Source: an uncultured Methanosarcinales archaeon | Lineage (GTDB): Archaea > Nanobdellota > Nanobdellia > Woesearchaeales > JACJVW01 | DNA: 64,000 bases | Assembly: GCA_964473285.1 (NCBI GenBank) | Contig: CAYYOI010000001.1 | Location: forward strand, 1,689-65,688 | Direction: 5' to 3' | In this document: in pieces, positions 1,953 to 40,274 of the stretch | How the letters are laid out: each line of letters opens with the position of its first letter | Numbering within the stretch: the first letter of the stretch is position 1 | Position numbers and translations under genes: made by a program | Notes under the pieces: generated by a model | What the model was told of the DNA's origin: nothing | The model's database searches: none | Seen by the model: only the letters and a program-made list of their open reading frames with translations

Positions 1953-3866
1953 ATGATTCTAGGAAAGATAACCGGAAGAGTGACAACTTCTGAATTCAAT
2001 TTCCTTGTAGCGGAAAATCCTCAGAAATTTGATTATGTCCAGGTATATCATCGCGAATACGGGTATGTGCTATGCCAGATAATCGAGATTGAAAGGAAAG
2101 AGGGAGAGACTAAAGCAAAATGCACCATTCTTGGATATCTTGACCAGGGAAGGGTAAAGCCAATCAGGACCCCTTTTGAACCAGGATGCGAGGTACTTCC
2201 TGCGGAAGATAGCTTCATACAGGATGTTGTCAAGCTGGATAATGAGACAGGGGCATATCTTGGTTTTCTAGAAGGGAAAAAGATACCTATCCATATGGAC
2301 CTTAACAAACTGCTGACAAAACATGTAGCGATCCTTGCAAAGAGCGGTGCAGGAAAGTCTTACACTGTAGGCGTGTTATTGGAGGAGATTATGGAAAAGA
2401 ATGTCCCACTGCTCCTTATTGATCCCCATGGTGAGCATTCTGCAATGAAATACCCAAATGAAAAGGATGACCTGGAATCATTCGGGATAGTCAAGAAGGG
2501 ATTTCTTGACCAGATAGAGGAATATGGTGATACGAGCATAACACCAGACCTGCGACCACTCAAATTACAGGAGAAGATGAGCACACAGGAGTTATTGCAC
2601 CTGCTTCCGGCAAAACTAAGCGCAAACCAGCAGAATGTTTTGTATGCTGCCCTCAAGAATGTGGAGGAGCCAACTTTTGTCAGCATCCTGCAAGCGCTGG
2701 AGATGGAGGAGAATAATGCAAAATACAGTGTCATCAACATAATAGATTACCTTTACAATCTAGGCATCTTCTCACAGAGCAACACACCTTATGAAGAGCT
2801 TGTACGATCAGGTAGGTGCTCAATAATCAATCTCAAAGGAATAGAACCACAGATGCAGGAGATAATAGCCTCAAAATTGCTTTCTGATCTTTTTGAGTTG
2901 AGAAAAAAAGGGAAGATTCCTCCTTTCTTCACTTTCATTGAAGAGGCACATATATTTGCGCCTGAAAGGTCTTTTGGCGAGACAAAGGCATCCAGGATTC
3001 TCAGGACCATTGCTTCAGAAGGAAGGAAGTTCGGACTAGGCCTGGGTGTGGTCTCTCAGAGGCCTGCAAGGGTAGACAAATCCGTACTTTCACAATGCTC
3101 CACCCAACTTATCCTCAAAGTAACCAATCCAAACGATCTGCGGGCAATTTCAGCTTCAGTTGAGGGGCTTACCCCTGAAAGTGAAAAGGAGATAATCAAT
3201 CTTCCAATAGGGACGGCACTGGTCACAGGAGTTGTTGATGTGCCTCTTTTTGTTAGTGTCAGGCCAAGGAAAAGCAGGCATGGTGGAGAGGCTGTTGATA
3301 TGCTGGGAAATAATTTCCTTGATGAGATGGAAGATTTTGAGAATAAGGAACTGCTTCCTATAATCACTCCAAAGATATCAGGAAAGGAACTGGAGATAAT
3401 CCACGAGAATCCCATAGAAAAGACAAGACTGATACCTGCAGCCCATATAGTATGTAAGGGAGAGAGTGAATTCAAGCTTTTAGTTGACCTGCATAACGGA
3501 GGGATTGTACATGAGGATGCAATCTATTACCTGCCTGATGTTGACTCACTCACAAGGGAAGAACTGGGTTTCCTGAAGAGGGTATTCAGGGAAAAGCGCC
3601 TGCAATCAGAACTTGCCCCAAAAAGCCTCCTTGAGAGGGGATATGTAATCAAAGAGAGAGGTGATTACTTACTCAACCCAAGCTATGTATTCTCGAGACT
3701 TGAAGGAAAAAGAGATTTTCAGGCAGTCGAGTTCCAGGCAATCAAATATGATGAGATTGCAGAAGAGTCTTTTGATATAGGGGAGATGAAAGAAAAGATA
3801 GGCAGGTTCGTGTCAGTTCTAGATGAGCAGAGGTGTTATTATGTTGAATATCATCTTCCAAAATAA
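1953..3866 (+). CDS. HerA/FtsK-superfamily (DUF87-like) ATPase with a ~200-aa C-terminal extension
   Basis: Walker A 'AKSGAGKSYTVGV'. Walker B 'FTFIEEAHIFAP'. 'GLGLGVVSQRPARVDKSVLSQCSTQLILKVTNPND' resembles the HerA/FtsK Q-R motif region. The N-terminal beta-rich region is compatible with a HAS-barrel. Confidence 0.75.
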   Translation: MILGKITGRVTTSEFNFLVAENPQKFDYVQVYHREYGYVLCQIIEIERKEGETKAKCTILGYLDQGRVKPIRTPFEPGCEVLPAEDSFIQDVVKLDNETGAYLGFLEGKKIPIHMDLNKLLTKHVAILAKSGAGKSYTVGVLLEEIMEKNVPLLLIDPHGEHSAMKYPNEKDDLESFGIVKKGFLDQIEEYGDTSITPDLRPLKLQEKMSTQELLHLLPAKLSANQQNVLYAALKNVEEPTFVSILQALEMEENNAKYSVINIIDYLYNLGIFSQSNTPYEELVRSGRCSIINLKGIEPQMQEIIASKLLSDLFELRKKGKIPPFFTFIEEAHIFAPERSFGETKASRILRTIASEGRKFGLGLGVVSQRPARVDKSVLSQCSTQLILKVTNPNDLRAISASVEGLTPESEKEIINLPIGTALVTGVVDVPLFVSVRPRKSRHGGEAVDMLGNNFLDEMEDFENKELLPIITPKISGKELEIIHENPIEKTRLIPAAHIVCKGESEFKLLVDLHNGGIVHEDAIYYLPDVDSLTREELGFLKRVFREKRLQSELAPKSLLERGYVIKERGDYLLNPSYVFSRLEGKRDFQAVEFQAIKYDEIAEESFDIGEMKEKIGRFVSVLDEQRCYYVEYHLPK

Positions 3867-3895: not shown

Positions 3896-4849
3896 ATGAA
3901 CCTTCTTATTGTTGATGATGATAAGAAAACTCTGAATACTCTGGAGGAGGCATTATCAGATTATCCTCTGAGATTTGCCAGGACTTCAAAACAGGCATCA
4001 ACAATCCTGCAAAAAGGAATCATAGATGTTGCTCTTCTTAGCGTATCTATGAAGGATTATCTGGACCTTTTCACTAATACTATCATAAATGGATCATATC
4101 CTTTCGTAATGGTAAGAGAGACAGACGCAAAGGCAACTGTAGAGGCTTTCAGAAATGGTGCAAGTGATGTCATAACAAAACCAATAGATTTTGATTACCT
4201 GAAACAAAGGATTGAAGGTATCGCCTCAAATACAGAGAGCCATGTACTAAGGAATTATGAGAGGATGATGATGTATGAGATGCCTTATGTAATGGGTCAT
4301 CAGAATGAGGCAAGAAACCATGTGAGATGGCTTTGGCATGATGTGGGAAAAGAGTTGTATGATGAATTTTTCGATTCTTATGATGAGGATTTCGAGCGTC
4401 TTAGCCTGCTTGAGGCATGCTCGCTTCATGATATCGGGAAACTATCAATACCTCAGCATATAAGGGACAAAAAAGGCAAACTGACACAAACAGAGAAAGA
4501 TAAGGTACGGGCGCATCCTGTAATTGGATCAAAGATGCTACAGGGAATAAGAGGTTATGAAAGAGCAGCACAAATAATCAGGGAACATCATGAATATTAT
4601 GATGGGAGTGGGTATCCTGAAGGAAAGAAAGGAAAAGATATTGACCCTGGAGCAAGAATACTTTGTCCTGTAGAGACTTTGCTCGGATACATGCATTATA
4701 AGCCGTATCGTGGCAAAGGAATGCCTTTTGAAGAGGCCTGCAATATGTTCTTTCTAGAGCACAGGAAGTATGATCCAAGGGTTGTGGAGGTTTATCACCA
4801 CTACATAGAGAATAACTTTTTAAATAGGAGTGTACTTGCAATAGCATAA
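3896..4849 (+). CDS. Degenerate CheY-like receiver (phospho-acceptor Asp replaced by Ser) fused to an HD-GYP phosphohydrolase domain
   Basis: N-terminus 'LLIVDDDKK...IDVALLSVSM' with Ser where the receiver Asp is expected. 'CSLHDIGKL' is the HD motif. 'HHEYYDGSGYPEG' is the GYP motif. Confidence 0.75.
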   Translation: MNLLIVDDDKKTLNTLEEALSDYPLRFARTSKQASTILQKGIIDVALLSVSMKDYLDLFTNTIINGSYPFVMVRETDAKATVEAFRNGASDVITKPIDFDYLKQRIEGIASNTESHVLRNYERMMMYEMPYVMGHQNEARNHVRWLWHDVGKELYDEFFDSYDEDFERLSLLEACSLHDIGKLSIPQHIRDKKGKLTQTEKDKVRAHPVIGSKMLQGIRGYERAAQIIREHHEYYDGSGYPEGKKGKDIDPGARILCPVETLLGYMHYKPYRGKGMPFEEACNMFFLEHRKYDPRVVEVYHHYIENNFLNRSVLAIA

Positions 4850-4850
4850 A

Positions 4851-7523
4851 ATGAAAATTGTTGGTGCAAATGAGAATGCCCGTCAGCCTCTGGATGACGT
4901 GATTGCTCTGCAGGATCATCTTCTTTCACTTAATGACCTTCCTATTGAACTTCTTGAAAGATACTGTGAAGAGGGGCAGTTTGTTGTTGGATATAATGCA
5001 ATCAAGCAATTCAGGAATGAGCTTGAAAAGAAAGTAGGCTCTGAGATAGAAGGGATGCTTGAATCATACCTGAACCATGCTTTTCCAGGAAAAAAGCTTT
5101 GCCTTGAGCCACAATATGTAGAAAAGGATAATATAACTTTCATGAGATATGAGTTGGGGGATAAAACACCTATAAAAGAGGTGAATATCCGTATAAAAAA
5201 GCGCCTGTTCGAATCACTTCTGAGGAATAATCTGAGGAATGAATCAGTGCTTGACCTGATCGGCATGGAATTCAATATTCATGACCCTTCTTTTGAAGGG
5301 AGCCCTTCAAAAAAACAAAGAGATAAGGAAAAAGGCATGACATATGAGATTGCATCTGACTTCCTTAAATCTTTGACAGGCATGGGAGAAATAAGGCCTT
5401 TTAGCTATATCCAGCATTACAAGACAACTAGTTTCTTCAATGAGCAGTTCAACACTAACTTGGAAGCTTGTGGGCTACACCAGAAGATTGTACATAAGAA
5501 CATAAATTACTACCTGAATATCCTGCATTTCCAGGATGAACAGTTCCAGAAAGTGATCAGTGACTTTTTCCAGGAGTTCCCGAAAGAGAAGAGGGATGTT
5601 GAGGGATTTGATTGTGCTTGGACACATCTGGACGGCGCTTCAAGAGAATGTTTCATAGGCATGAAAGATAATCTCCTGGTTGATATAGAGACAAAACCAA
5701 TCTATCAGAGCTGGCCTTACATGGATGCAATTATAGATAATGTTCTTCCTGTAATAGTGGAGAATCATGAAAGAACCTCTGCTGCACTTGATGAGATTAT
5801 TAATGGAATGTTGCCTAATGGATGGAAGCTGGGAAAGATGATTCCTGTTAGTGGAGAATTCAATGAACACCTTCTTTCAGTCCCAAAAGACAATGAGGTG
5901 AATATATATCATTACAGGGAAGAGGGTGAAAAGCACGTCTCATACAGGATAAGACAGGAAAAACCCAGACGTTTCAAGATGAAGCATACTGATCATGCTT
6001 ACAGGCTTGATGACTTTTATCTTATAAAGAAAGATAATCTTGTCCTGGAGATTCCAGCAGATACAGATAAGGATGCAAGGAGGATTGCAAAGAAACTTGA
6101 TCAATATTCACCAAATATCAACTCTGTCAGGCAGCTAAGGATAAAGAAAGGAACTATACCTCTTGATTTCAGGATACACAATGTGCGCCAGAACAACCGT
6201 TTCCTGAGCAGATATATGATATTTGAGCCTTTTGAAGAACTAAACAACGAGTTCACGATAATAGACAGATATGCAAACCCTAAACAAAAAAAGAATCCAA
6301 AGACGAATAAGACAGATACTTACAAGGATTACCAAGCTCTCGTGGTCACTTCAAAGGGAAGGGTGATAGAATGCCAGTTCAAGGACAGGTGGACTCATAA
6401 GGATAATGAGAAAGGCTGCCTGAACCATAAGGCATATGTAAAGAAACAGCAGAAGGATCTTGAGAACTATCCTGAGATAATGATGTTTTGCAAGGCACTT
6501 CAGACAGGCAAACCTGACCCTGAACTGCTGGGGCTATTCAGAGCATCAAGGTTCAGGAAAAGGTTTGATAACTATATGAACATGATTCAGGCTTGCTCAA
6601 TCGGCGAGATGGTAAATGAGACAGAGAGAATGATTGCCCTTTACAAAGAGATCAAACCTATGGAGGGGCAAGAGGAATCCATTAAAGAGCTTGAGACAAT
6701 GCTTATAGAAACACCTCTCAATTTTATCGCCTCACAGATTGAAAGACCAGATTACATCCCAAGAACCCTTGTTCTGAATCAGGTATTAAAGACCCATGGT
6801 ATAGCTGAATGGGAAGAAGATTTTTTGGTGGATTATGCTTTGAGTGAAGAGATAGAGAGCCTGAAAGGAAGGATCGGGAAGGCATCCTTTACAACTATAC
6901 ATGATGAGATAATAGAAAGGCTTCCTTCTTTTGCAATGAACATGAAAACTTATGTAAAAAATGATTATGATGCACATAGTGAATTATCTTACCTGGCAAT
7001 CAGCTATACAATGTCATCGGTGATGAGAATAAGAGAGACACCTATAACAAAGGTTTTACCATTGATCCTTGATCCTGATTCTACCATGAAGCAAGCCATG
7101 GGTATGATACAGGAAGTAAGCCAAAGTTTCGGAATTGATTATGATATGGAAAATAGCTTACATGAGATAGCTTATGCTGCACAACAACAGATTGCCTCAA
7201 GAGCAAAAGAGGCTTTCCAAGCATGCGCTACATGCAGCAGGACTGAAGGCATATACAGGAGCATGGTAGGGTTTACACTTTATTCTGACCTGAAAAAGAT
7301 TGAGGAAATGCTTCCTTTGAAGTTCTCAGAAGAAATACACAATACAAGTTTCTATTTTGACAGGAACCACCTAGTATATCTTCCAAAAGGGATGCTTTAC
7401 AATGATATACCAAGAGGCAAGAAAACGAACATGAATCTGCTCAAGAAAGTTTCAAAGGAATTCACAGGCGACCCTGATTATGCAGATCATGTGAAAGAAG
7501 TCATGAATAGCCTGAAATACTGA
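4851..7523 (+). CDS. Large hypothetical protein, 890 aa, no recognisable family. Possible PD-(D/E)xK-like 'HLDG...LLVDIETK' segment.
   Basis: Long uninterrupted ORF. It starts 2 nt after the HD-GYP stop, so it is probably co-transcribed. No motifs I can assign confidently. Confidence 0.55.
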   Translation: MKIVGANENARQPLDDVIALQDHLLSLNDLPIELLERYCEEGQFVVGYNAIKQFRNELEKKVGSEIEGMLESYLNHAFPGKKLCLEPQYVEKDNITFMRYELGDKTPIKEVNIRIKKRLFESLLRNNLRNESVLDLIGMEFNIHDPSFEGSPSKKQRDKEKGMTYEIASDFLKSLTGMGEIRPFSYIQHYKTTSFFNEQFNTNLEACGLHQKIVHKNINYYLNILHFQDEQFQKVISDFFQEFPKEKRDVEGFDCAWTHLDGASRECFIGMKDNLLVDIETKPIYQSWPYMDAIIDNVLPVIVENHERTSAALDEIINGMLPNGWKLGKMIPVSGEFNEHLLSVPKDNEVNIYHYREEGEKHVSYRIRQEKPRRFKMKHTDHAYRLDDFYLIKKDNLVLEIPADTDKDARRIAKKLDQYSPNINSVRQLRIKKGTIPLDFRIHNVRQNNRFLSRYMIFEPFEELNNEFTIIDRYANPKQKKNPKTNKTDTYKDYQALVVTSKGRVIECQFKDRWTHKDNEKGCLNHKAYVKKQQKDLENYPEIMMFCKALQTGKPDPELLGLFRASRFRKRFDNYMNMIQACSIGEMVNETERMIALYKEIKPMEGQEESIKELETMLIETPLNFIASQIERPDYIPRTLVLNQVLKTHGIAEWEEDFLVDYALSEEIESLKGRIGKASFTTIHDEIIERLPSFAMNMKTYVKNDYDAHSELSYLAISYTMSSVMRIRETPITKVLPLILDPDSTMKQAMGMIQEVSQSFGIDYDMENSLHEIAYAAQQQIASRAKEAFQACATCSRTEGIYRSMVGFTLYSDLKKIEEMLPLKFSEEIHNTSFYFDRNHLVYLPKGMLYNDIPRGKKTNMNLLKKVSKEFTGDPDYADHVKEVMNSLKY

Positions 7524-9624: not shown

Positions 9625-11130
9625 TTATGGTGGGTTTTTTCTCATATTTTCAGGTCTATAGAACTGATCAGGATTCTGCCGGGATTGCTGATATGGGGAA
9701 GATTGACCAGGGTTTTGAAATGGCTGGCTTTGTGTGGACTGTGCCTGCCGGAATTCCTGACCTGTTTTTGGATTTTGTGGACGCTGGTAGAACTGGGCTG
9801 GAGGTGCCTGTCCTTGCTGGAATTGCTGGTTTTGGGCAGGTTGATTCTGCTGAGGCTGCATTTGTGGGGGGGGGTTTTGCTGCTGGGATTGTTTTCTTCT
9901 TGTGAAGATAAACATCCAGGCTACATTTATCGCTATGAGAACAACTATAAGGATTATAAGGACTGTGTTTCCGTCTGTTTCTTCACTGTCTGCAATCACT
10001 TTTGCAGTAGGAGAAAAGTCTGTGACAATCTCGTTTAATGTTACTGTCGCATTGAAAAGCTTCTCAGTGACCTTTTCTTCATAATTTACCTGTAGTTTTA
10101 TGTCATATTCACCGGGAGAGATATCTTTAGTGTCCCAATAGGCATTAACCTTCTCTACTGAGCCTGGCGCGATGGAAACAGATGATGTCTTGAAATCAGC
10201 ATATTCTTTCCCTTGCTTGTCAAGGACAAACAGATGAGCATAAACATCATTTATAGGCCTGTTCCAGCGATTCATGAGGTCTATCTGGAATTTGGCGATA
10301 TCACCGTGCTTGAAGTCGGGAACATCAACATCAACAACCTCCACCCGCATGCTTCCAACATAGAAATTCTTCTTTACAGTAAAGGATTTGTCATCATAGG
10401 TAACTGTTGCGATGGCATGGTAGAGTCCAGGGCTGACATCTGCCTTCCATCTTGATAGAAGCTTTACTTCATCCTGTACTGAAAGGCTTTCGGATTGGGT
10501 AAGAACTGTTGCGAGCACCTCATTCGTTGGGCCCCGGACCTCAATTGAAGCCTGGATATCCTGGATCTTCTCGCTACCGAAGTTATAGACTGGTAACTTG
10601 AAACCTGCATAGCCCCCAACATCAGCATCCTCAATAAAAAGCTTGCCTTCTGCATACTTATCAGGGTAGGGCACAAACACTGAAAGTTTTGATACAACTG
10701 CAGTTGTTGCCTGAACAACTGTTCCTTTCTCTTCAGACTCAAAGACAACCTGCGAGTCATCTATTACCACCGCTGAGCCTGCATCATCAGGGATATGCAT
10801 GGCAACAAGGTCAATCTCATGAACCCCTGGCTGGTCTATCTTTTCAGGCAGGGTAAGATTGAAATTGATTGTCTTCTCTTTCTCTCCCTGGGAGAAGCTT
10901 ACTATCGATTTTTTGAAACGAATTGTCTCTGCCAGATCTCCCTTGGGATATACGATGGCTTTCATGGGCTTTCCTTCAGGATTTAGGACCCTGATCTTCA
11001 AAGAATCTTCAAGTGAGGGCTGGAATTCCACGCTCTGTTTTGCAGGAGCTATACCAATACCGTAGGCAGAGCCAGCAAAAAGCAATACAAGGAAAACTAA
11101 CATTACTTTCTTATTCACCGGGCTCACCAT
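9625..11130 (-). CDS. Type-I membrane surface protein with Ig-like/CARDB-like beta domains, one TM and a Pro/Gln-rich low-complexity cytoplasmic tail
   Basis: Signal peptide 'MVSPVNKKVMLVFLVLLFAGSAYG'. TM 'VLIILIVVLIAINVAWMFIF'. Tail 'QQQNPPPQMQPQQNQPAQNQQFQQGQAPPAQ...'. Overlaps the giant-gene stop by 20 nt. Confidence 0.7.
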   Translation of the reverse strand: MVSPVNKKVMLVFLVLLFAGSAYGIGIAPAKQSVEFQPSLEDSLKIRVLNPEGKPMKAIVYPKGDLAETIRFKKSIVSFSQGEKEKTINFNLTLPEKIDQPGVHEIDLVAMHIPDDAGSAVVIDDSQVVFESEEKGTVVQATTAVVSKLSVFVPYPDKYAEGKLFIEDADVGGYAGFKLPVYNFGSEKIQDIQASIEVRGPTNEVLATVLTQSESLSVQDEVKLLSRWKADVSPGLYHAIATVTYDDKSFTVKKNFYVGSMRVEVVDVDVPDFKHGDIAKFQIDLMNRWNRPINDVYAHLFVLDKQGKEYADFKTSSVSIAPGSVEKVNAYWDTKDISPGEYDIKLQVNYEEKVTEKLFNATVTLNEIVTDFSPTAKVIADSEETDGNTVLIILIVVLIAINVAWMFIFTRRKQSQQQNPPPQMQPQQNQPAQNQQFQQGQAPPAQFYQRPQNPKTGQEFRQAQSTQSQPFQNPGQSSPYQQSRQNPDQFYRPENMRKNPP

Positions 11131-14100
11131 AAAATATCAATGTTGACTGTTTCTTACCTGGAGGTTCTTCCCAGGGTACTTCGATTTTTACTTCAATCTC
11201 GGCTTCATCTGAATCATCATGATGGAGGAGTTGTCTTATCATGTATGCATTGGAGGAGACATTTGTCCACTCGGTTACTGACTGGTTGTAATCGAATGAT
11301 GCATATTCTGTTGAATTGCCTGCCTTTATCTGGAAAAAACGGGAGGGACTCCTTGCCATAGGGCTTTCCCAGAGGTCATCCTGAGCAGAAATATTATGGA
11401 TATCAATTATTATGTTTCCATCGTTTCTCACTATGAATGGTTGGGGGGTGGAGCTGTTGGAATCATCTGTCGTTTCTATGCTGTCACCTACACGCTGGAC
11501 ACCGAATGATACATTTTCATTAGCTAGGGAAACTATGATCCTAGACTCTATCGAGAAGTTCCATGGCTCTGACCAGTTACTGTGAACAATGCCATCATAG
11601 GCCTGGATCCTCCAGGAATATATGGAATCATAATCGAGATCCTGAAAAGGGGTGAAGTTGAGATTTGTTATGTTTGTCTTGTTTATCTCATGGACAGAAC
11701 ACTGCAATGGTCCACTGCATTCCTCTAACTCAATGAGGAGGTTATATGATAAATTATCTGCATTGGAATCATATGCTTCTTCCCATGAGAATATTGGCCG
11801 ACGCTCAAATACTGTGAAATTATCTTCCTGGGGGGTCAGCCTTACCGGGATCTCAGGAGGTATATTTTCCTGAAGCCCGACTGTGAAAGTGTTCGTTTGT
11901 GAAGTGTTTTGAATCTCTTCATGCCAGCAGGTAACACTCCAGTTGTGTATCCCCTGGGAAAGATTATTTACAACTGTGTGAGTAACATCCCCACTACTTG
12001 TTATTACAGTAGTGTTTATTTCACCATCCAAAGATAAGTTACAAGTAACCTGTTCTCCCAAAACATCTGTTTTAGGTGTCCAGTTAAAATCAATGTTTTG
12101 GCTTTCAATCCTTTGCCCATCACGCGGATGGTGGAGTTCTATAGGAAGATAATTCACTATCTCAATGGTATCAGAGGCCTGGGATTTCATCGGGCGATAA
12201 AAATCAGTACTCTGGATGTTGCATTGGTAATCGTATGAGCCAAGGCTTGAACTGGAAAGGTCTATCTCATAAGAGGCATAGCCATCTGAACCAGAATAGG
12301 ATGAGCCTAGGTATCCTTCAGGCCCGTAATACTGTACAAGATAAGATGAGATAGGATCTGCAGTATCAGCATCAGTAACACTACATGTGAGGTTTGTCAC
12401 GCCTCTTGGTGTTATACCTGAAGGACTGACCCAATCAACCCTACTATTTCCTGTAAGGTTAAAATAGAGATATGGCACGGTATTGTTTATGTTCTTATTG
12501 GAATCATTTGCCCAAAGCTTTATTGCATGCTTTCCTATGGTCCAGGAATTGTTGGTGCATAAAGTAAGGTTCGTCCAGTTAACAGAATATGGCTTAGGGA
12601 TATCTTGTTCAATAAAATCAGAACTATTGTAGATTGCTCTTGCAGTATCAGGTTCTTCGTCCCACTTTCCGTAAAGGTATAAACATTCTCCCCTTGAAAG
12701 CTCAGTGTCATTGATCCCATATTCCTCAAGCTTGGGAGGATATATGTTTGATGTATTGACTACGTTCAATGAGATATTTGCGGAATCTATTGTTGCATTG
12801 TAGTAGAGCTGGTTTGTGATGTTACAAGTCATGGTGTGGAGTCCTAACTCACTGTCATTGAACTGGTATGTTGCCCATCCTGAAGCATTTGTAATATTAT
12901 TACCAAGATAGACCCCATTCCTGTAATAGGTCACATTGTATCCAGCAATCCCTGTATCATTGAGGTCCTGGACAAAGCATCCTGTTGTGGTGTAGTTTCC
13001 AATGCGAACGCTTGATCTTCTTTGGAATGAGTCTGTGATTCCAGAGTATCCCCACACTTCCATTTGTTGGATTGGTGTCTCATTGGAGTTAAGAGATGTA
13101 TCCCTGGCATATTGCTTCCATCCGTACAGCCCTGGATCTGTATCGGTTGGAACAGAATAATCAATATGTGCCCATGTATCATTTGAATCAAGGGAAATAT
13201 TTGTTACATTTGAAAATACTCCAGTTAGATTTAATGATAGAGTTGCATCTTCAAGTATTGCATTATCAGTCCATCTAACAGAGTAGGTTTCTCCCTGTCC
13301 TTTGTATGTCTTAACTGGCCCTGATATCTCCTTGTAACGTGGTGGATCAAATTCTCTTACGAATACAGTCTCATGAGATATATTCCGGTGATCAACCTTA
13401 TAGAGGGATGTTTCTGAGATATTACAGGTGAGATCATAGAGGCCATAGGTTGATGGCTCATAGATATAGGCAATCTCTCCTGCTTCATTGGTTGTTGACT
13501 GGTAGATGGGATAATCATCAGAATACAATGATACGGTATAACCTGGAATGGAGGACTGATTTGTCTCGTCAATTATTGAGCAAGTAATCCTGACTGAATC
13601 ATTTAGATCAATCTCTGTCTGGTTAATGCTCAAGTCATCCACCGTAGCAAGTCCATAGACGTTGAATGATAGATAAGGGAGAGTATCATTCCAAAAGCCG
13701 CTCGGATTATTTGCTTCAATACGCGTGACATGCTTACCAAGCAACCAGTTTGCTGAAGGGTTGAATGTATAATTGGTCCAGTTGTGCGGATTGGATTCAG
13801 AAAGTGTTATTTCATCTGATACCATACCTGGAATGGTTGCATTATAAAATACGTTTGCCTCGCCTATCTCCTGGTCCCAACGTGCAAATATGGTTGTATC
13901 CTGTGAATTCCTTATGACGTCATTTGTTGATAGTCCATAGATTGCTTCATGAAGATGAGGGAAATCATATTGCCTGTTGATAACATGGAAAAGAGATTCA
14001 TCAGATTTGGTGAATAGGCTATCATCTACTGTAAATACAACTGGGTAGTCTCCAGTGGAGGTCATGTTTACTGCATATGAAAGTGTCAATTTTGTATCAA

Positions 14101-17100
14101 CAGGTACTGTTCCTCTTGCATTCCACATGACTGTTCCATTGAAGGTTCCATTGTATTCATTCCCACCATATCCTATCTTATACCAGATGTCCTGGCTTTC
14201 GTTCAAATGCCAGGTTTGGTTGAGCCCGGCATGTGAGAAATCACTCTCAGATATGTTCCAATCCTGTGAATCGAAATGATTCTTCATCTCAATCTCTATC
14301 CGATATGATTCATTTCCAAAAAGTGTGAATGTCTTTGCTAGTCCTGAGTCAATAAGAGTTCCGCTTGAATATCGTGTTGTCTCATTCACTTCATAGATAC
14401 GTATATCCTCTATTGTCACGTATGTTTGCGGACCAAGAATTGTGAACTCATCATATCCTTCGTATACTCCTTCACTTGCTTGGATGGGTTCACCATAAGG
14501 AGTCTGCATATAAGCATATACCCTATAGGTGCCACCTTCAGAATTTTTGGTATCCCAAGGATTCCAAATCTTTTCAAGATCAAAGATGGTATCAGCGTTA
14601 ACTGTTTTTTCAATCCCGTTTATATGGGTATCAATTGTCTGCCATGTGTCATCATATCGCTGGATCTCTGCAAATACCTCACCCCGGAATGTTTCTGTAG
14701 TGCTTAGGGTATCATCTGCAAATGTTTCCTCTTCACCCATCTCATAATCAATCTCTCCGGTAAGAACTATCTTTATATCATCATATGTGTAGATTGGTGC
14801 TCCGTCTGAAGATATGCGTATCTGATCAAGATCTGTAGGATTGTCAGTGAAATCAAGGTCTTGGACAGTTGTTGATTGCCTGTGGTAATCGTACTTGTCA
14901 GCCACATCAAGCCTGTAATCATAATCTCCGGAAACATCCTCTTCTATAATATTGCCTGAGGCAGTGCTTGGATAGCGGGTGATATAATAATCTACAACCA
15001 TCCCTCCCCATGAACTCTCCCTATGAGTATAGATTGCTGGACCTAATCCTGCCACATCATCTGCATCTGTCATTTCTGATGCGTCACCAACACCAATGTG
15101 CTGCCACCAACCATCCCCACTATCAGGAGAGACCATATTGAATGATAAATTGAAAGCTTCCTGTAGCACCGAGAGATTGTGCTTGACACCAGCTGTACCT
15201 TGTACTTGCAGATGATTATTCACAATCTGTGTGTCTGTATCTGTGCCCCATTCTGACCAATTATTTCCAATATCATTCGAATCAGCACGATTGAAATCAT
15301 CGTAGAAATAATAGACTTCTGATTTATCAGAAGGGGCAATACCTGCATCAGGATTATGATAGTAAACGTAATATGAACCATTTCCTCGTGTCTTGAAAAG
15401 TATCCTTGTATTTGAAGAATCAAATGATGAGAGGTTAATCCTTGCAAGCTCAACATTCCCTGTCCCATTGAACCATACAATCCTAAGGTCATTGCCTGAG
15501 GGAAGCATTGAACGGGTATCCATACTTATCTCCATAGTATGACCATCTATGGTATCGTTCAGGATTATTTCCTTTCTTCTCTCGTATGAACCATCCCACC
15601 AGGGCACTGTCTCTATCAAGGTAACGTTCTCATGAAGATCATATGTGGATTCATTCACCTTTACCTGTATACCTCCATCCGCCTTCACTACAAAAGATGA
15701 AAGTGAAGAATGATTAATACTTCCAGAGGTATCTTTTGCAAACACCTGGACATGATAGGTTCCATTAAACCATGTGTCAGAGAACTGTCCTGTAAACAAC
15801 TCACCTGAAGAAAGAGATATATTTGTAGTAGAAGTGTTAGGGTATGTTACCTGGGCCCATGCAGAATCAATGGATGTATCATCTGTTATATTTGCTTGTA
15901 TTGTCTGATTGATGCCATATCCTATCACAGGGTCTATCATAACCTCATGGATGGTTGGCTTAAGTCCCAGATACATCTGTTCATAGCCAACAGAGGGGTT
16001 AGTGTAGTCATCAGGTGAACCCTCATAGGTCGCATTCAATGTGTGTAATCCTAATGAAAGTTCAGGCGTGAAGCTTTTGGTTGCCCACCCCTGCTCATTT
16101 GTGATAGCTGATCCTATTGCCTGATCATCTGTCTCGTCAAAGAAATATATCCTTTCCCCTGAAATTGCGGTGCCATTATCATAAACTAACCTTGCCTGCA
16201 GCTCTATCTCTTCTCCTCTTGATGTATCATTGTCAGAGACAATAAAAGATGAGATCGCTGTTTTTGCGTAAATGTCAATATAGGTATTCTTGAAATCTGA
16301 CTTGACTCCTGATCCAGCTGATTCAGCAGTCACATGTTGCGTACCCAGAGAGGTGGATATGGGAACGTCAAATGTCGCATTATTCCAGAGTACTTCACCA
16401 GCATACAGTAAAGATACATATGAGGAATCTGGTGTTACAAGTCCCCATGAAAGAGGATATGTTGTTATATTGAGATAGGCATCCACAACATCAGAATTGT
16501 TGGAACTCTGTGCAAGATAGCTTATGTCTGCCTGATTTCCACGGGTAATGCTTGATGGCGCGCTGTATTGGGTGATCTCAAATGTTCCCTGTTCACGTAT
16601 CTCTAATTTCTGGTTGAGGATCTCATCCCATACCTTTATCTCTTCACCAGGGTTAATGTACTTGATGGTCACATTCATATCATAGTCTCCAACAGAAGCT
16701 GTTCCTGTACTTATATTATATACTGCAGTAAGGGGACCTGCCAATGTGGCCATATTGCAGTCACTTACACAGGCACAGGATATGTTCTCCGGGCAGTTTA
16801 ATGAGATAGATACATCTGTTAGGTTCCTGCTCCATTCATTTTGCATTGAGAAATTAACGAGTTGTGAGGTGTTGAGATATTGCCGGCTTATATTTGAAAC
16901 AGCAAAATCTTCCCTCAGATTATGAATCAGGATATATTCGCTCCTATTGACACGCAATGGACCATTCAGTAAATCCATCACCACATCCCACTTTAACATG
17001 TAGCTTCCTTCGGCATCCTCAGGGATTGTATAGCCTTCATTCCATTGACGGGTCTTTGTGGTGTTGTATGGGATCTCTCCATAGTGCTTTGTTTCCTGAT

Positions 17101-20100
17101 AGGGCCCAAACCCCACGTAATCCAAAGCGTACTTGTCAAGTAAAGTAAGCGTTACTTCTGAGTCAAGCGCAGTATTATTTGCTGCAAAAAGAGTTATATT
17201 GATCCAATCTATTGTGTCGGTAGTCTCATATTCATCTATTGTATTCTCATGTGTCAGGTTTGCAAGATGCAGATAAGATTGAAGAATATAGAATGTATCA
17301 TAACCTACTATCTGTTCATAATCACTACCAACAATTATCTGATCATCCCTATCAGGATTAGTAGTGTTTCTTACAAGAGAGAACTTCACCCTGTACTTCC
17401 CATGAGGGTATATGCCTGTATTCCAGGGATTATTGTTCCAATCATAGTAATAATCAAGGGTAGTGCCATTGGCAATTGTCTTTATGTCATCTGTTGCAAT
17501 GTCATTTATTGGTACGGGATAAAGGTTTTCCCAATAAAGCCCATTGTAATACTGTATGTTTGCCCACCTGTAACCATTAATTGGTCTATCTCCTGTGTTA
17601 AGTGCCCTGCTTGCTGCCTGGACATCACCATACTCTAGCTGTGTATCATGCAGTTCTCTTAGGGTGAAATTAGTGAGGTAATCGTTACCGTTCATGGCCA
17701 CGCTTACAAACCCTATGGCTGAGGGCTCAAGATCTATATCATAGCTTGCCTGCAATGAGTCATCAACGTACATGGAAAGTGTGCTGGACTCATACCTGAG
17801 CCGGATAGTATGTTTAGACTGTGAATCAATATCTTCTGATGTGGCCTGAAGAAGATTAGGAGTATTGCCTTGTGTCTGAGAGAATATTCCGTCTGTACCT
17901 CCATCGGGAAAATCGTTGCTTATGAGGGCTTCGTAGTAGGTTGAACCTGACTGGACAAAAAGACCAAGCGCGTCATCATCATCACCATGGACTGTCACTT
18001 CAGCTTCAAATTCACTAGGTACTATAGAAGGATAAGCGATCATGTCATCATTGCTGTCATCTATAGTAATACGTTCTTGTGCTGTGTCCCATGTGAAAAG
18101 ACCATTGTTTGCACCACGATCATAGATAACTTCCTCAATATATTCACTTTCCTTATCCTCGCTTACATCATCATAGAAATCAAATACTTCGCTCTTATTC
18201 TCTTGAGTTGGAGGACCATCATAATACATGGTAATTTCGCTTTGGTTTTTGAGCCTGACATATATGCTTGTATTCTTTATCCAGTGGGCCAGTCTTTCGT
18301 TTCCATAGAAAGCAATATCAGAACCATTCGTGTATCTCCAGACTTCAGGATTATCTATCTCAAGTATAACAGTCCTGTTTGTTGCGTTAGTAGTTATGGG
18401 AAGTTTCTTATTCCATTCATAAAAGCGGTCTGATAGATATACATCCTCATGGTTTTGGTAACTATCTTTTTCCAGTTGAGGTGAGACTATAGCAGATCCC
18501 TGGACATCTGCATATACTGTACTCTCTGCCTGTATTCCATCTATGTTCGTAGCAGTAATGTTGAAAGTATAAGTTCCCACATCCCATGTATTACGATATT
18601 CTAAAGAGTCATTGAAGGTAAAAATCTCTTGTGTCCCGTCTGGCCTTGTGAATTTGGTTTCCAGAGAATCTATCCCTCTGGTGTCATTTGCTGAGATATT
18701 CAGATTGATAAGTCCCCCTATTCCTGCATCATTGACTGAAATGTTAGTTATATTTGGTCTTGAGGATATGAACAGATTGCTCTCATCCTCTGAAGGGTTA
18801 AAGTATCTTTCATAGTCTTTTTGGAATATAGTTTTTAAGGTGTGGTTTCCTATTGAGCTCTCCGGCACCTCTATGCTTGCTGAAAATGATCCTTCATCTG
18901 CGATAGCAGAACCGACTTTTGAATCATCAATAAAGATTAGAACTGTACCAGACACATCCTTACCCATATCATCTTTAAGAGTGCCTGAGACCCTGATCTC
19001 ATCTCCAGATGCGGTAACTGGATCAGAGCTTGTATCAAGTACAGTATCCGCAAAAACATAAATTATCTTTTCATTGCTAACGCTGTCTCCTGTAAGGCGC
19101 AATACAAATTTACCATGCTTTTTGGGTGTGACCTGCCATTGAGGTGAACAATCCCCACTGCAGGGATAAGGATTTGATGCAGCAAATACAGTATCACTTT
19201 CACTCATGTTGGTGAAAAACATTGCAAGTGATGTCTTGTAATTGATCGAAATACTATTAAAAATAGGAGTAATTGTCTTGTTGGTCGTTACCATTCGTAC
19301 CTGGTACTGGAGGAAGCGGCGACCATCTGAGGTTATCTGTTGCCCATTGGTTTGTCTTTCCCAGTCGGTCCATGAACTTTTGTCATCTGAGGTTCGTGTA
19401 TAAATACTGAGATTCGTACCTGTAGGTTCATCTGACAGGTATTCAATGGTATCATAATATACAATTGATGCATTTGTATCAAGACTGTCTGAAGTATAAT
19501 TTCCATAAAGGGAAAAACTTACATTTTCATGCTTCCATTTTTGTATTGATACAGGTGTGTTCTCACGGGAAAAGATCCATTCTATCCTCATTTCAGAATC
19601 CCCGTCATTTACCAAATATAATGGACCTGTAGGGGTTTGTGTGGCACTATGTCCCCTGCCCTGGGTTGTATCATTAAACAATGTTGATTCGCTATTTACT
19701 GTTACCATGTAATTATGAAGTCCTTCGTTGTTCCTGGCCTGACCTGATTCACTTAAATCCCCACCCCATCGATTTCGGTCGATAACAAAATCATACTCTG
19801 TAGTCCCGAACCATGTACCTGTTTCATAATGCTCAATGAAATTCCATGAACCAATCCCTATACCTGCTCTCCAGTCATCAGAGTTCCCACGCATTGCAAA
19901 CTCTATTATCTTTGGTTCACTTACGGTATATTCCGAGGTATAGATATATTCAAGTTCAGTGCCTGGCTGACCTACAAACTCACCTCCTGTGATTGAGTAT
20001 GATCCTTCATTGTCAATCCATTTAGAGGTCTCAAGAGATGAGTTCTCAAAATCCTCGAAAAAGTCAAAGACCTTATCACCATCACTGGTATCTTGAGCAC

Positions 20101-23100
20101 CGGGATTCCCGTAATAGACAAATATTGTATCTGTACCTTCCTTTATCTGTGTCCAGAGGATGGCATGATTGCTATCTGATTCCTGGACCCAGTGTGGTAA
20201 GATCTCTTCTTTTTGGGTGGAGGTATTGAGAGAGGTTATCCTGATATCTGAGAAGTCTGTAGCTGAAAAATCAAGGTCATCTGTATCCAGTTCAATCTTT
20301 GCCTGGGATCTGCCAGTAACGTTGAATGACAGACGATGAGGCCATTCCTGATCATACCATGTATTAGTAGATATATCAGGTAGAAGTCTTAGATCATCTG
20401 TTACGCTGATGTTGTTATTCTCAGAATAACTCCTGAATCCATCATATGAATCATCAAGTTCACCTGAACCGCCAATCTTCTTGTACTGGGCGGCAATCTC
20501 ATCAGTACCTGAATATGTACCGTTCATGTGAAAATCAGTGAAAAGGTCATGATAAGGATAATCCGGTTCATCAATAAGCAAGTCTCCTTCATACCAGGAG
20601 ATCGCCCATTCGTTAACTCTGGGGCTGAATGAGGTGTTTGTAGTATTGAGTACTGCTTCTATTGACAAATTATCATAACCAAAAGTGCATCCACTGATGT
20701 CGTATTCAGTTATTTCTTCTGCCACTGGTATCTCGCAGAGGGTGTTTTCACTGAACAGCCGATAAGTAATGTTTGTACTCTCTGGGATATAATGATCTGC
20801 AAAAAAGGTTGTAAAGGAAGCGTTGGAGTCTATGAGTCCTGTAGTAAGGTTTCCAGAGGATTCATACTCGGAAAATTCAGAACTAATATTTACTGTGTGT
20901 GTGTCACTTGTCCTGTTAAGGTAAATGATCCAGTCAAGACCTGCCCTGTTTGCACCATCATTGTCAGAATCACACCATGCCTCTATATAACCATCTGAAT
21001 AAGTATCTGAGGATCCGGTTATCTCATACCCATGATAATCATTGTAGAAACTGAAATAAGTTCCTGAGAATACTCCTTTTGAACGAACCCATAGATCCTG
21101 GGGAAGGAAGTTGTCAAACAGGGAGAGATAATCAAAACCAGGCATGTCCACAATTCCCACATTTTCAGCATCCCTGCTGTCCAGCATGAAAAATGTTCCT
21201 TCAGCCACATCGTCAGTATTAGGTTCCCTTACACCTATAGCCCCATCAAAGTCTCCGTCACTGTCAGGAGTTAGCATACGCCAGTATAGTGTACCATTTG
21301 CAAATGTATCTATGCTTGCAAAGCTTGGATTGTTCTGGTTGTTGAACCATCCGCCACCATCAGTCCAGTATTCTACATATCCTTCACCTTCAGGGAAATT
21401 ATAATGACCGTCGGTCACAACCTGCCATTTGTTGGTATCAAGACTGCCATCATTGAAATCATCGAAAAAAGGAAAGACCTGTTCACCATCGTGATAACTG
21501 CTTTGGCTGGCATCCTGATTTGCATAGTATACCCTGAATGATTCTGTATCATCTATCCTTGGAGCTCTTACCCAGATAGTTGTCTGTGACCTGTTGCAGT
21601 AGCCTTCTTCTATCCAAAAATAGACCTGCTGTTCTGAACCATTTTTCCAGGTGATGCGAAGATCTGAACAATCCCCTTTCATCTTATTCTCATTGATTAG
21701 AGTCCTTGTATCAAGTGTGAATGAGAAAGGATAGTTACCTGGAGACTCTCCTGTAAGAGTTATATCTCTTGAGTGTCTCCAGCATCCGCTCTCCATATAA
21801 TCAAGACAACCTTTCTGAAGTTCTACGCCACCTTTGTGTGTTGCATTGAATATAATATTATGGTGGGAAGAGATGCTTTCATTACTTCTTAGATCATCGT
21901 AATAAGACCTGTTCATATCAACAATTATAGGATCAATTGCTATGAACCAAGGACGAGCTTCATGGAAGGTATTATTTTCATACTCTATCTCTGAAGAGAG
22001 GCTATAGAGATCAGGGGTCTTCAATGGAGGCTGAAGCGTGTAGTTGAGTTGTGCTTCTCCTGAAGATTCCAATGTGATGGTATTGTTATCTATTATTCCT
22101 GTAGAGCTTTCAATTGAGAGGTTGGAAGGGATTTTTTCCTTTAGAGTATATGTACCGTTGTAATATGGCTTTATTGTGATGCTTGCCTTAAATGGGCCCT
22201 GCCAGGGGTCAGTTGTCATAGGAGCATCTCTTATTATCTCAAATGGATAATCCTTTTCCACAAGGAAGGATGAGTGCATGGTGTCATTGATCTTATCAGA
22301 GAGGGCATTTACTTCAAGTCCATACTCTCCTTCTTCTGCTGTATTGTATTCAAATGAATAGATTCCTTTGCTTATCTCTTCTATACTATTAAAAGTTGTA
22401 AGATTTGTGGGACTCTCTATTGTACATGATACATTGGCTGATGAAAGATAACCCTCACTATCAAGAATAACGATTGTTATGTTCGCTTTTTCACCGGGAG
22501 GGTATCTACTCTTGTTGGTGTTTACTGATGCAAGACCTGTCTCGAACTTTTGTGCTGAAAGGTGTGGAACCACCCATCTTATCTCATCATAAAGTCCATT
22601 GGAGTTGGTGTCTACGAAGGAAACATTGTATGAATCCTTGTCTGTTATATCAACCTTAGACCCGTTTATATAATGGTAGAGTCTTGGTTTCAGAATGGGC
22701 TCATCTATCTTTGTTGATGCGCTCACATTGATGTAGTGGAAGGAAGAATTTATGATTATCTCTTTCTTATGTCCCCTCTTTTTCTCTTTCTTGACAGGTG
22801 CGGGGGTAGAATAGGTTACCTTAAGGTCTCCAGTATATTCTGATCGATTTATCTCTCTCTTTTCTAGTCTGATTGTTTTTCCCTGATGAATAAGGCTTAT
22901 GTTGTGGGCTTGTGAAGGTATATCAAGGTTTTCATGTACTAGTTTTTCCCATCTGACTGGTTTTCCTGCTTCTGCCTTTTTTTGCTTTGCTTTTATCTTC
23001 TTTATCAAGATCTCTTCTTTTGTTATGTTTTCTCCTTTTCTTGCGTATATTGTGACGATTGATTCTTGCTCACTACCTGCAGTTACTCTCAAGATGCCAT

Positions 23101-24172: not shown

Positions 24173-24660
24173 TTTTGCCTCGCCCTCCTATAGACTGTCC
24201 AGATTGTCCTTTCGTTGCGATTCAGCAGGATTGCGATCTCTGAGTATCTTAGGTTACGCTCGTCCCTCAGATAGCAGACAATACCTTCAAGGATTGTAAG
24301 GTTCTCCCGGATACAGGGTTTGAAAGGTATCTTTTGTGAATGTTCTATTGAAAGGGTGACATCCTGCTTTCTGGCATTATTGTATGTGGACCATATGACC
24401 TGGGAACTACGATTGAGAAGGGTTCCTATGTCCTTATTCTTGTAATTAAGATGGTCGCGAAGGTAAAGCACTGTTGCCTGGAGTGGACTTAGTGCCGAGT
24501 GGAATATAGAAAGAGGAATTTGCAGCTCATCATCAGGGGCCATCGATATGAGCATCTCTACAAGGGTCTCTTTTGGAAGTGCCAGAAGATGATCCTTTAT
24601 TTTAGGAAGAAGAGACTTATCTTTCAAAAGATCCTGCACAAACTTGGATTCCGGGCCCAC
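24169..24660 (-). CDS. Small cytoplasmic protein with two sigma-region-4/HTH-like repeats. Putative regulator at the head of the giant-protein operon, with a GTG start.
   Basis: Internal duplication 'LLNRSSQVIWSTYNNARKQ' / 'LLNRNERTIWTVYRRARQK'. 4-nt ATGA overlap with the giant-gene start. Confidence 0.55.
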   Translation of the reverse strand: MGPESKFVQDLLKDKSLLPKIKDHLLALPKETLVEMLISMAPDDELQIPLSIFHSALSPLQATVLYLRDHLNYKNKDIGTLLNRSSQVIWSTYNNARKQDVTLSIEHSQKIPFKPCIRENLTILEGIVCYLRDERNLRYSEIAILLNRNERTIWTVYRRARQK

Positions 24661-30850: not shown

Positions 30851-31354
30851 TTGTTGCTTTTCATAGAGACCTTCCTTATAATCATTGGAATAACTATACT
30901 TGCAGAGGTATTCGGGCTGGAATCAAAGGTTTTCTCAAGGAGAAACGTACTTGTTGTGATGGTGCTCAGTTTCTTTACGATCCTTGGTCTAGCAGGAAGC
31001 ATCTCTCCGCTTAAGATGTATTCTATCGTTTCCATGGTCCTTGTCATAGGACTGGCACTTACCATGCTTCCGGTATGGAATATAATGAAAACAACAAAGA
31101 AACTTCCATGGAAACTGCTTGTTGCATCGCATATAATGTCTATGATCTCAGTGTACTTGATTTTTACAGCCCTTGGCTGCTGCGCAGTACCAATAGATGA
31201 CCCGGCATGCCACTCAGGAGATTATCTTGTTATTCCTGCACCTTGTAGCGGGACATTCGTGACTGGTTTTTTTATATTTCTGATGGGACTTTTGATAGGA
31301 ACATGGCTTTTGACCGGATCATTCTATTACCTCTATAAAGGCCTTAAGATATGA
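30851..31354 (+). CDS. Hypothetical membrane protein, about 5 TM helices
   Basis: Hydrophobic ORF. No recognised motifs. Confidence 0.4.
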   Translation: MLLFIETFLIIIGITILAEVFGLESKVFSRRNVLVVMVLSFFTILGLAGSISPLKMYSIVSMVLVIGLALTMLPVWNIMKTTKKLPWKLLVASHIMSMISVYLIFTALGCCAVPIDDPACHSGDYLVIPAPCSGTFVTGFFIFLMGLLIGTWLLTGSFYYLYKGLKI

Positions 31355-31485
31355 GATGAAAAAGAAGGCCAAAAAAATACAGACACAAAGTAAAGAGAAT
31401 CAGGAAGAATAGAAGTAAATCTGACTTGAAAAATCTTCAAAAATCCAACAGTATACCATATTAATTCTGCGAGAACACAAAAGAT

Positions 31486-31557
31486 ATGTTCCATGAGATT
31501 CTCCTCGCATTATTGGTCGGTGTGGCTTCCGGGGTAATTACAGGTTTCTGGTTCTAA
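31486..31557 (+). pseudogene. 23-codon relic N-terminal fragment homologous to the start of the TctA-like gene at 47106. Putative displaced target-gene 5' end at the element junction.
   Basis: Translation 'MFHEILLALLVGVASGVITGFWF*' versus 'MFFEILLAIIIGVNAGIITGLTP' at 47106. About 65% nt identity over 66 nt. Confidence 0.5.
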
Positions 31558-31582
31558 GATTTTCTTGATTAATTCTAAATAG

Positions 31583-33137: not shown

Positions 33138-33141
33138 GAAA

Positions 33142-33459: not shown

Positions 33460-33470
33460 AACTCGTACTT

Positions 33471-37448: not shown

Positions 37449-37681
37449 AATTTAATTAAATTATTAAGCACACATATAAATTTTACTAGAAATAGCCTGA
37501 AAATACCAAATTCTCCACTGAAATCAATATCCTTTCAAAAATTCTAACAAAAAAGCCAGGCTATTTGATGCAAATATCTGTTACAAAAACATAGGTTCAA
37601 AATCAAGCCTTCTTTTTTAAAGAATTTTGTATGATCTTCTTGTTACAAAAAGACCTGTTTTAGAAACATTTAATAAAATCT

Positions 37682-40272: not shown

Positions 40273-40274
40273 CT

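Follow-up and report, generated by a model that had tools for sequence, protein, structure and literature searches.

Introduction

HD-GYP domains were for a long time regarded as absent from archaea. A census from 2021 counted about 70 archaeal HD-GYP open reading frames (ORFs), nearly all of them derived from metagenome-assembled genomes (MAGs), and left their genuineness open, flagging them as possible contaminants (Galperin and Chou, bioRxiv 10.1101/2021.11.05.467447). The described systems closest to the gene presented here are the RpfG family, in which a CheY-like receiver is followed by an HD-GYP domain, and the aspartate-less receivers, which retain the receiver domain without its phospho-acceptor Asp and constitute ~4% of all receivers and 10-15% of archaeal receivers (PMC4395418, PMC12632262). 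According to a 2025 review in J Bacteriol, no archaeal pseudo-receiver has been studied functionally (PMC12632262). Here we describe a gene that joins an aspartate-less receiver to an HD-GYP domain in a Woesearchaeota genome; it lies at positions 3896..4849 on the forward strand of a 64,000-nt stretch of contig CAYYOI010000001.1 (assembly GCA_964473285.1), the whole of which is called the window below.

Our preferred reading, which we hold with somewhat more than even confidence, is that this RpfG-type gene is resident in Woesearchaeota and encodes a phosphorylation-independent, metal-dependent (cyclic) nucleotide phosphodiesterase, possibly with a shifted substrate. The evidence that carries it comes from the register of the receiver active site, the residues kept and replaced in the HD-GYP active site, the selection acting on both domains and the genomic setting of the gene.

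Results

The gene encodes a two-domain protein of RpfG architecture

The gene and its parts are as follows (positions are those of the window, residue numbers those of the protein).

3896..4849, + strand: pseudo-receiver plus HD-GYP gene, a complete ORF from ATG to TAA, 317 aa
3896..4228, + strand: aspartate-less receiver, residues 1-111, defined by the Pfam PF00072 match and a (βα)5 fold in the model
4232..4279, + strand: helical linker, residues 113-128, a helix in the AlphaFold model
4280..4843, + strand: HD-GYP domain, residues 129-316, defined by Pfam HD_5/HD, PDB and Foldseek matches

A first-pass annotation of the DNA letters had placed the ORF at exactly these coordinates, and the strings that it quoted, VDDD (D7-D9), DVALLSVSM (S49), ITKP (K95), HDIGKL and DGSGYPEG, are all present. 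The protein is identical to the NCBI entry MFP4423659.1, an 'HD domain-containing phosphohydrolase' from the MAG of a Candidatus Woesearchaeota archaeon, located on a 77-kb contig. Residues 4-107 matched Pfam Response_reg (PF00072) with 36.5 bits (curated cut-off 30.2), and the C-terminal domain matched HD_5 over residues 174-296 with 84.2 bits (E 1.1e-23) as well as HD with 44.2 bits; NCBIfam matches also support the domain identity. In a sequence search of the PDB, the nearest HD-GYP structures were V-cGAP3 (5z7c, E 6.8e-20), PmGH (4mcw, 5.7e-17) and PA4781 (4r8z), and the sequences nearest to the N-terminal part were receivers such as PleD and NtrC1. The AlphaFold model, built on an alignment of 120 relatives, is confident (mean predicted local distance difference test score (pLDDT) 90.1, predicted template-modelling score (pTM) 0.71) and exhibits a complete (βα)5 receiver, a helix from residue 113 to residue 128 and an all-helical HD-GYP domain. 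When this model was submitted to Foldseek, the HD-GYP side returned DvhD (9rbz) as the best match together with PA4781 (4r8z), PmGH (4mcw) and Bd1817 (3tm8), and the receiver side returned the canonical receivers CpxR, MicA, PhoP and VicR with target template-modelling scores of 0.8-0.9. The two-domain protein of RpfG architecture, with an N-terminal CheY-like receiver and a C-terminal HD-GYP domain, is therefore real, well beyond chance.

For the residue comparisons, column statistics were taken over the best 120 relatives of the query, 48 of which yielded receiver domains with a hidden Markov model (HMM) built from canonical receivers. A MAFFT alignment took in 17 canonical REC-HD-GYP proteins plus the three orthologs (20 proteins), which comprise the query, its closest ortholog P0002 (84% identity) and P0003 (52% identity). 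The signalling helix of the 17 canonical proteins exceeds the linker by ~35-50 residues, which leaves a gap of ~37-49 columns in this alignment. The ratio of nonsynonymous to synonymous substitution rates (dN/dS, ω) against the 84% ortholog was 0.12 for the whole gene.

The N-terminal domain is an aspartate-less pseudo-receiver

4040..4042, + strand: Ser49 (codon AGC) at the phospho-acceptor position, CheY D57 or PleD D53
4112..4117, + strand: Val73-Arg74 at the end of strand β4, the CheY T87 position without Thr or Ser, from the alignments and the model

In the AlphaFold model, DSSP assigned β1 to residues 3-7, α1 to 10-19, β2 to 25-28, α2 to 31-40, β3 to 45-49, α3 to 52-65, β4 to 70-74, α4 to 78-86, β5 to 91-94 and α5 to 99-111. 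The active site of this fold departs from that of canonical receivers as follows. First, the phospho-acceptor is Ser49, as the first-pass annotation had proposed. Ser49 occupies the acceptor column of the MAFFT alignment with the 17 canonical proteins; a phmmer alignment to PleD pairs D53 with S49, and an alignment to E. coli CheY pairs D57 with it; in the HMM alignment of the 48 receivers, the acceptor column holds 45 Asp and 3 Ser, the Ser carriers being the query and its two orthologs. In the model, S49 is the final residue of strand β3, the structural site of the acceptor. Ser is thus the acceptor residue in all three members of the family. Second, the conserved Thr that the annotation had listed is missing. 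The equivalent of CheY Thr87 is R74 in the HMM and PleD alignments and V73 in the MAFFT alignment, in a column that holds 39 Thr and 4 Ser among the 48 receivers, and the orthologs carry V-G and M-G at Val73-Arg74. T76 was rejected as a candidate for this Thr since it lies 2-3 residues downstream of the true column and is Asn in P0003. Third, V92 stands in the place of the aromatic switch, a position with Tyr or Phe in 40 of the 48 related receivers. Meanwhile, the acidic pair after β1 (CheY D12/D13) and the Lys after β5 (CheY K109) are present in the query as D7, D8 and K95, as annotated; P0003 has Asn at both D8 and K95. Among aspartate-less receivers in general, Ser accounts for 15% of the acceptor replacements, acidic residue 1 is kept in 65%, the Lys in 70% and both Y/T-coupling residues in 44.5% (PMC4395418).

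A canonical, phosphorylatable response regulator whose acceptor Asp sits in a shifted register (e.g., D44 or D54) would agree with the Pfam receiver match above the curated threshold and with the presence of the acidic pair and the Lys. We looked for such a hidden Asp in the alignments and the model, and none is available: the four alignments and the model all place S49 at the end of β3, D44 is the usual Asp at the start of β3, which also occurs in canonical receivers that have the acceptor too, and D54 is Asn in the closest ortholog P0002. With the Thr and the aromatic switch missing as well, we give the shifted register a negligible probability. The domain is a true aspartate-less pseudo-receiver, unable to act as a canonical phospho-Asp receiver, and the loss of the acceptor Asp, the Thr and the aromatic switch rules out phosphorylation control of the RpfG type. 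The claim that the N-terminal domain is not a canonical two-component output is thus borne out, and the domain is more degenerate than the annotation held.

Across the whole protein, conservation among the three orthologs is lowest in the four loops that form the active site of a working receiver, where 0-50% of the residues are invariant; strand β5 is 100% invariant. The receiver evolves with ω 0.21 (dS 0.50) against the 84% ortholog. This purifying selection indicates that the pseudo-receiver is functional and not decaying. All three orthologs share Ser49 amid flanking loop residues that vary, and two of them retain D7/D8 and K95, so one could suppose that Ser49 (or a nearby Ser/Thr) is O-phosphorylated by a Hanks-type or other kinase, replacing Asp phosphorylation. 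We regard this as very unlikely: Ser is among the commonest acceptor replacements anyway, one invariant residue in three sequences carries little weight, P0003 lacks the D8 and K95 needed for phosphoryl stabilization, and no kinase is encoded in the window.

The sister genome encodes, a few genes upstream of its methyl-accepting chemotaxis protein (MCP) gene, a canonical stand-alone receiver of 129 aa (L001 30-419, - strand; 82 bits) with all five active-site residues; the matching region of the genome studied here falls outside the window. The lineage therefore has ordinary receivers, and the loss is specific to the fusion protein.

The HD-GYP domain keeps the metal ligands and has lost second-shell residues

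Residue roles were taken from the PmGH study (PMC4159591) and from Galperin and Chou, and were mapped onto the archaeal protein by alignment.

PmGH H189, metal ligand: H135, kept
PmGH H221/D222, HD metal ligands: H178/D179, kept
PmGH K225, stabilizing Lys: K182, kept
PmGH H250, metal ligand: H207, kept
PmGH H276/H277, metal ligands: H231/H232, kept
PmGH G284-Y285-P286, GYP motif: G239-Y240-P241, kept
PmGH D305, metal ligand: E260, a conservative change; Glu in 9 of the 120 relatives
PmGH E185, third-metal ligand: Y131; Y/F subgroup, predicted binuclear, like PA4781
PmGH D183, proposed general acid: M129, replaced; Ile and Leu in the orthologs
PmGH D308, which clamps R192 and H189: L263, replaced
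PmGH R192, partner of D308: E138, replaced; Thr in P0003
PmGH R314, guanine-reading Arg of RxY[K/R]: K269 (KPYR), replaced; Arg in 113 of the 120 relatives
PmGH KPG motif, guanine 2 contact: KKG (K192-K193-G194), replaced; KTG in P0003; Pro in 76 of the 120 relatives

The HD motif corresponds to H178-D179, and the HHExh(D/N)GxGYP motif reads H231-H232-E233-Y-Y-D236-G-S-G239-Y240-P241. H135, H178, D179, K182, H207, H231, H232, E233, D236 and G237-P241 are invariant across the 20 aligned proteins, and the seven metal ligands, K182 and the GYP motif are all kept in family members down to 52% identity. The first-pass annotation had called this module intact, which holds for the motifs and the metal ligands, where the His and Asp ligands are kept and the D305 equivalent is a conservative Glu, and does not hold for the equivalents of D183, R192, D305, D308 and R314, which are M, E, E, L and K, respectively. 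With Tyr at the position of the third-metal Glu, the domain is predicted to belong to the binuclear Y/F subgroup and not to the trinuclear (E/D-T-G) subgroup.

Selection is strongest in this part of the protein: against the 84% ortholog, the HD-GYP domain evolves with ω 0.07, and its metal/substrate region (the HHE-GYP loop, helix α10 and loop L10/11) is 81-82% invariant among the orthologs, which are 52% identical overall. The combination of M/I/L129, E/T138, E260, L263 and K269 with intact His ligands is found in only the three archaeal proteins among the 120 relatives. Its components are more widespread; D183 is lost in other subfamilies with full ligands (Ser in 14/120), as is the D308/R192 pair (~20/120), so these residues are not universally essential. 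The second-shell losses thus lower the expected activity but do not exclude it, because the same residues vary in other subfamilies.

The gene is a resident of the archaeal genome

3867..3873, + strand: TTATATA element, a putative archaeal TATA box, at -29 to -23 from the ATG

The protein has only two close relatives, MFO7710332.1 (84% identity; Woesearchaeota MAG BLK6-3.bin.78) and MGM5487609.1 (52%; Nanobdellota MAG Y22_30dBSe2.bin.114). A pattern scan of 185,579 GTDB species genomes retrieved only the two archaeal genomes that encode these relatives and one distant bacterial match. The three MAGs stem from different assemblies and have a common gene order: M24 peptidase-MCP-TYW3-HerA-like ATPase-[HD-GYP gene]-orphan-homocysteine S-methyltransferase-Cdc6/Orc1-surface proteins. 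Of these genes, TYW3 and Cdc6/Orc1 serve as archaeal/eukaryotic markers.

An origin from contaminating bacterial DNA, or from a contig binned wrongly into an archaeal MAG, has to be considered since the named relatives outside the family are all bacterial and archaeal-MAG HD-GYP ORFs were flagged as possible contaminants (Galperin and Chou). Such an origin would be hard to reconcile with the locus, and we judge it to be extremely improbable. The contig around the gene extends over at least 64 kb (77 kb for the database entry), with TYW3 on one side of the gene and Cdc6/Orc1 on the other, in an order that is identical in the three assemblies; its GC content, 0.394, equals that of its neighbors (0.39-0.43); and the best bacterial relative is only ~31-42% identical. 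Furthermore, all three loci carry the same TTATATA in the 29-nt upstream spacer, which has otherwise diverged in the 52% ortholog. In its geometry, this element resembles an archaeal TATA box whose transcript would be leaderless or carry a short leader. Synteny, neighbor-like GC content and the conserved TATA-like element together mean that the contamination caveat of Galperin and Chou does not apply to this locus. The gene is genuinely archaeal, resident and kept by selection, and the archaeal host named in the first-pass annotation is confirmed by synteny, relatives and database identity. Scans for tRNAs and Rfam families over the whole 64-kb window found no tRNA gene and no Rfam family at the gathering threshold.

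Both halves have their closest relatives among bacterial REC-HD-GYP proteins (31-33% identity for the receiver, 37-42% for the HD-GYP domain), and so does the full-length protein, with 28-31% identity over 94-97% of the length; one bacterial relative (P0008) is located in a type IV pilus cluster. These sequence comparisons make it probable that bacteria supplied the whole RpfG-type gene, which diverged thereafter.

Proposed function

We propose that the product is a cytoplasmic protein and that an ancestor of a narrow Woesearchaeota (DPANN/Nanobdellota) clade took the RpfG-type gene from bacteria. Its receiver half would have kept the CheY fold and lost the phosphotransfer chemistry, accepting no phosphoryl group from a histidine kinase, and would most likely serve as a fixed structural, dimerization or partner-contact module. 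The catalytic domain, joined by an unusually short helix, would be constitutively set or gated by an input other than phosphorylation; regulation by a ligand or a partner, as the first-pass annotation suggested, would be of this kind. The HD-GYP half, which has the seven-residue binuclear site of the Tyr subgroup without the third-metal Glu and keeps the Lys and the GYP loop, would most likely bind two metal ions and a phosphodiester substrate, and hydrolyze the latter. Since the general acid, the D308-R192 clamp and the guanine-reading Arg are replaced, its substrate or kinetics are probably unlike those of the classical c-di-GMP-specific HD-GYPs.

Several points weigh against this reading. 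The equivalents of PmGH D183, D308 and D305 are Met, Leu and Glu, and in PmGH the D183A and D308A mutations abolish activity and D305A reduces it (PMC4159591); with M129, L263 and E260 in these places, the protein may be a poor enzyme or no enzyme. The HD_5 match spans profile positions 45-170 only, a partial coverage that reflects the diverged N-terminal helix of the HD-GYP domain. No nucleotide cyclase, GGDEF, histidine kinase or known cyclic-dinucleotide effector is encoded in the 64-kb window. Furthermore, assays for c-di-GMP in two archaea, H. volcanii and S. acidocaldarius, did not detect it, and the GGDEF domains in Asgard and DPANN MAGs are BLAST matches only (PMC8646023). No ligand or partner for the pseudo-receiver was identified, and the conservation statistics rest on three known members, all of them MAG-derived.

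The hydrophobic residues at the D183 and D308 positions, together with the lack of a cyclase in the window, also speak for a catalytically dead HD-GYP domain, which would bind (cyclic) nucleotides or metal as a receptor, or serve as a protein-interaction scaffold, like DvhD, HnoD, ECA3548, Bd1817 or RpfG in its protein-protein mode. The top Foldseek match, DvhD (9rbz), is a c-di-GMP-bound HD-GYP domain that shows Ser-Gln opposite the HD motif of the query in the PDB sequence alignment, and inactive RpfG-family members acting via protein-protein contacts are documented (Galperin and Chou). Nevertheless, we consider a dead domain possible rather than probable. In the HD-GYPs documented as inactive, the HD and/or HHE ligands are gone (HD to SE or HT, HHE to QLE or ANE; Galperin and Chou), as the Ser-Gln of DvhD illustrates, whereas the archaeal family keeps the seven ligands, K182 and GYP across 52% identity and at ω 0.07, and the losses of D183 and of D308/R192 also occur in the full-ligand subfamilies described above. 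The phosphodiesterase role that the annotation put forward is plausible from the metal ligands that are kept, and is weakened by the hydrophobic residues at the D183 and D308 positions. Overall, the balance tilts slightly toward catalysis by the HD-GYP domain, and we read the pattern of conservation as pointing to a functional metal centre and nucleotide pocket in which the chemistry or specificity would have been retuned.

A bolder form of this phosphodiesterase reading is that the protein is the first bona fide archaeal HD-GYP enzyme, phosphorylation-independent, with its KxYR motif and altered second shell aimed at a messenger other than c-di-GMP. We hold this to be unlikely. The candidate messengers could be c-di-AMP/pApA, or a cGAMP-type or other cyclic oligonucleotide, possibly from the host or a neighbor cell.

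Genomic neighborhood

22-1371, + strand: methyl-accepting chemotaxis protein (transmembrane segments, HAMP, MCPsignal 153 bits), conserved in both orthologous loci
1953-3866, + strand: HerA/DUF87-type ATPase, 637 aa, directly upstream of the HD-GYP gene
4851-7523, + strand: near-orphan 890-aa ORF, which begins 2 nt past the HD-GYP stop codon

Synteny extends over the whole region in the three genomes, so nothing about function can be read from the position of the HD-GYP gene beside the HerA-like ATPase or near the MCP. A chemotaxis link to the MCP, which lies three genes upstream, was rejected as no CheA, CheW or CheY is encoded in the window; CheR and CheB are likewise missing anywhere in the 64 kb. 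An orphan MCP is unusual for a genome-reduced archaeon. The HerA-like ATPase scores 163 bits against an NCBIfam cut-off of 970 for bona fide HerA, has no NurA partner nearby and carries a C-terminal extension of ~190 residues without a family match. A defence-island reading was also rejected: PADLOC returned only generic HerA matches, and the HD-GYP protein has only weak similarity to Cas3-HD.

The 890-aa ORF has four matches in 1.84 billion representative proteins, three of which are the orthologs, and the sole distant homolog has no HD-GYP neighbor. It has no Pfam, NCBIfam or PDB match, its AlphaFold model is unusable (pLDDT 47), and the locus of the 52% ortholog (L002) has two gene calls, of 252 and 474 aa, in its place. 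Its homologs, families and model carry no usable information about a functional link to the HD-GYP gene.

Farther along the window, a giant ORF of 4353 aa (11111-24172, - strand) is rich in N-x-T/S sequons and has tandem 'NLTD' repeats near the N-terminus; its ortholog in L002 (4402 aa) matches DUF2341, and the product is probably a glycosylated surface or adhesion protein. Next after it is a 501-aa protein with a WxL-interacting host-binding domain (9625-11130). Directly downstream of the giant gene, with a 4-nt overlap, a 163-aa protein (24169-24660, - strand) contains two sigma-70 region-4-like helix-turn-helix units (42.7 bits) and may be a dedicated regulator.

The stretch from ~31000 to 46000 has a low GC content (0.28-0.34 vs about 0.40) and holds a tyrosine integrase (32067-33137), a serine resolvase (38942-39634) and a 1325-aa PQQ/β-propeller protein (33471-37448); it is probably an integrated mobile element. 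A 1232-aa fusion within it (41183-44881, - strand) joins a bacterial-type DnaG primase (CHC2 zinc ribbon, DNAG_N, Toprim) to a complete MCM helicase (N, OB, P-loop, lid), a primase-helicase architecture that is unusual for an archaeal mobile element. Lastly, a DHH-family protein of 366 aa (50449-51549, + strand) has the N-terminal DHH domain only (34.9 bits). DHH/DHHA1 enzymes include nanoRNases, c-di-AMP/pApA phosphodiesterases and archaeal RecJ/GAN, and this protein could be relevant to dinucleotide turnover in the organism.

Discussion

This locus provides a clean positive case of an archaeal HD-GYP gene, with the same neighborhood in three MAGs, strong purifying selection and an archaeal-type promoter element. 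It also provides a concrete archaeal example of the pseudo-receiver class. Should the enzyme be active, the changes at its base-reading and general-acid positions would make it a useful natural variant for probing substrate choice by HD-GYPs, and one would have to ask which cyclic nucleotide needs degrading in a genome-reduced archaeon that probably depends on a host. An archaeal HD-GYP enzyme acting on a messenger other than c-di-GMP, if that reading is true, would imply cyclic-nucleotide signalling or interference in Woesearchaeota. The advance is incremental since both component ideas are well known, as the comparison with the described systems makes clear.

The RpfG family (Xanthomonas RpfG, Thermotoga TM0186, Pseudomonas PA4781) has the same two-domain order and the same folds. 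PA4781 (4r8z), a top structural match, also shares the subgroup without the third-metal Glu. The archaeal protein differs from this family in lacking the acceptor Asp, the Thr and the aromatic switch, so that dependence on phosphorylation cannot apply to it; in the inter-domain helix, which is shorter by ~35-50 residues; in the replaced equivalents of D183, R192, D308 and R314; and in its host, a DPANN archaeon. It is therefore a derivative of the RpfG family rather than a working member, agreeing in architecture and not in phosphorylation control.

The aspartate-less receivers (Maule et al. 2015, PMC4395418; PMC12632262) are likewise PF00072 domains without the acceptor Asp, in which Ser is a frequent replacement. 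The archaeal domain keeps acidic residue 1 and the Lys, like most of them. Unlike many of them, it has lost both Y/T-coupling residues, and it differs from the others in being fused to an HD-GYP domain in an archaeon.

PmGH (Persephonella marina, 4mcw) and V-cGAP3 (Vibrio cholerae, 5z7c) are the best sequence matches among solved structures and share the equivalents of H189, H221, D222, K225, H250, H276, H277 and GYP with the archaeal protein. Relative to these two enzymes, E185 is changed to Tyr, which removes the third-metal ligand, D183 to Met, R192 to Glu, D305 to Glu, D308 to Leu, R314 to Lys and KPG to KKG. DvhD (9rbz), Bd1817 (3tm8), HnoD and ECA3548 show that the HD-GYP fold can exist without catalysis or with altered catalysis, and DvhD and Bd1817 are among the top Foldseek matches; these proteins have lost the HD and/or HHE ligands, whereas the archaeal family keeps all of them. 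An Asp-less receiver and a divergent HD-GYP domain are thus each already known, and it is their combination, together with the DPANN host, that is new.

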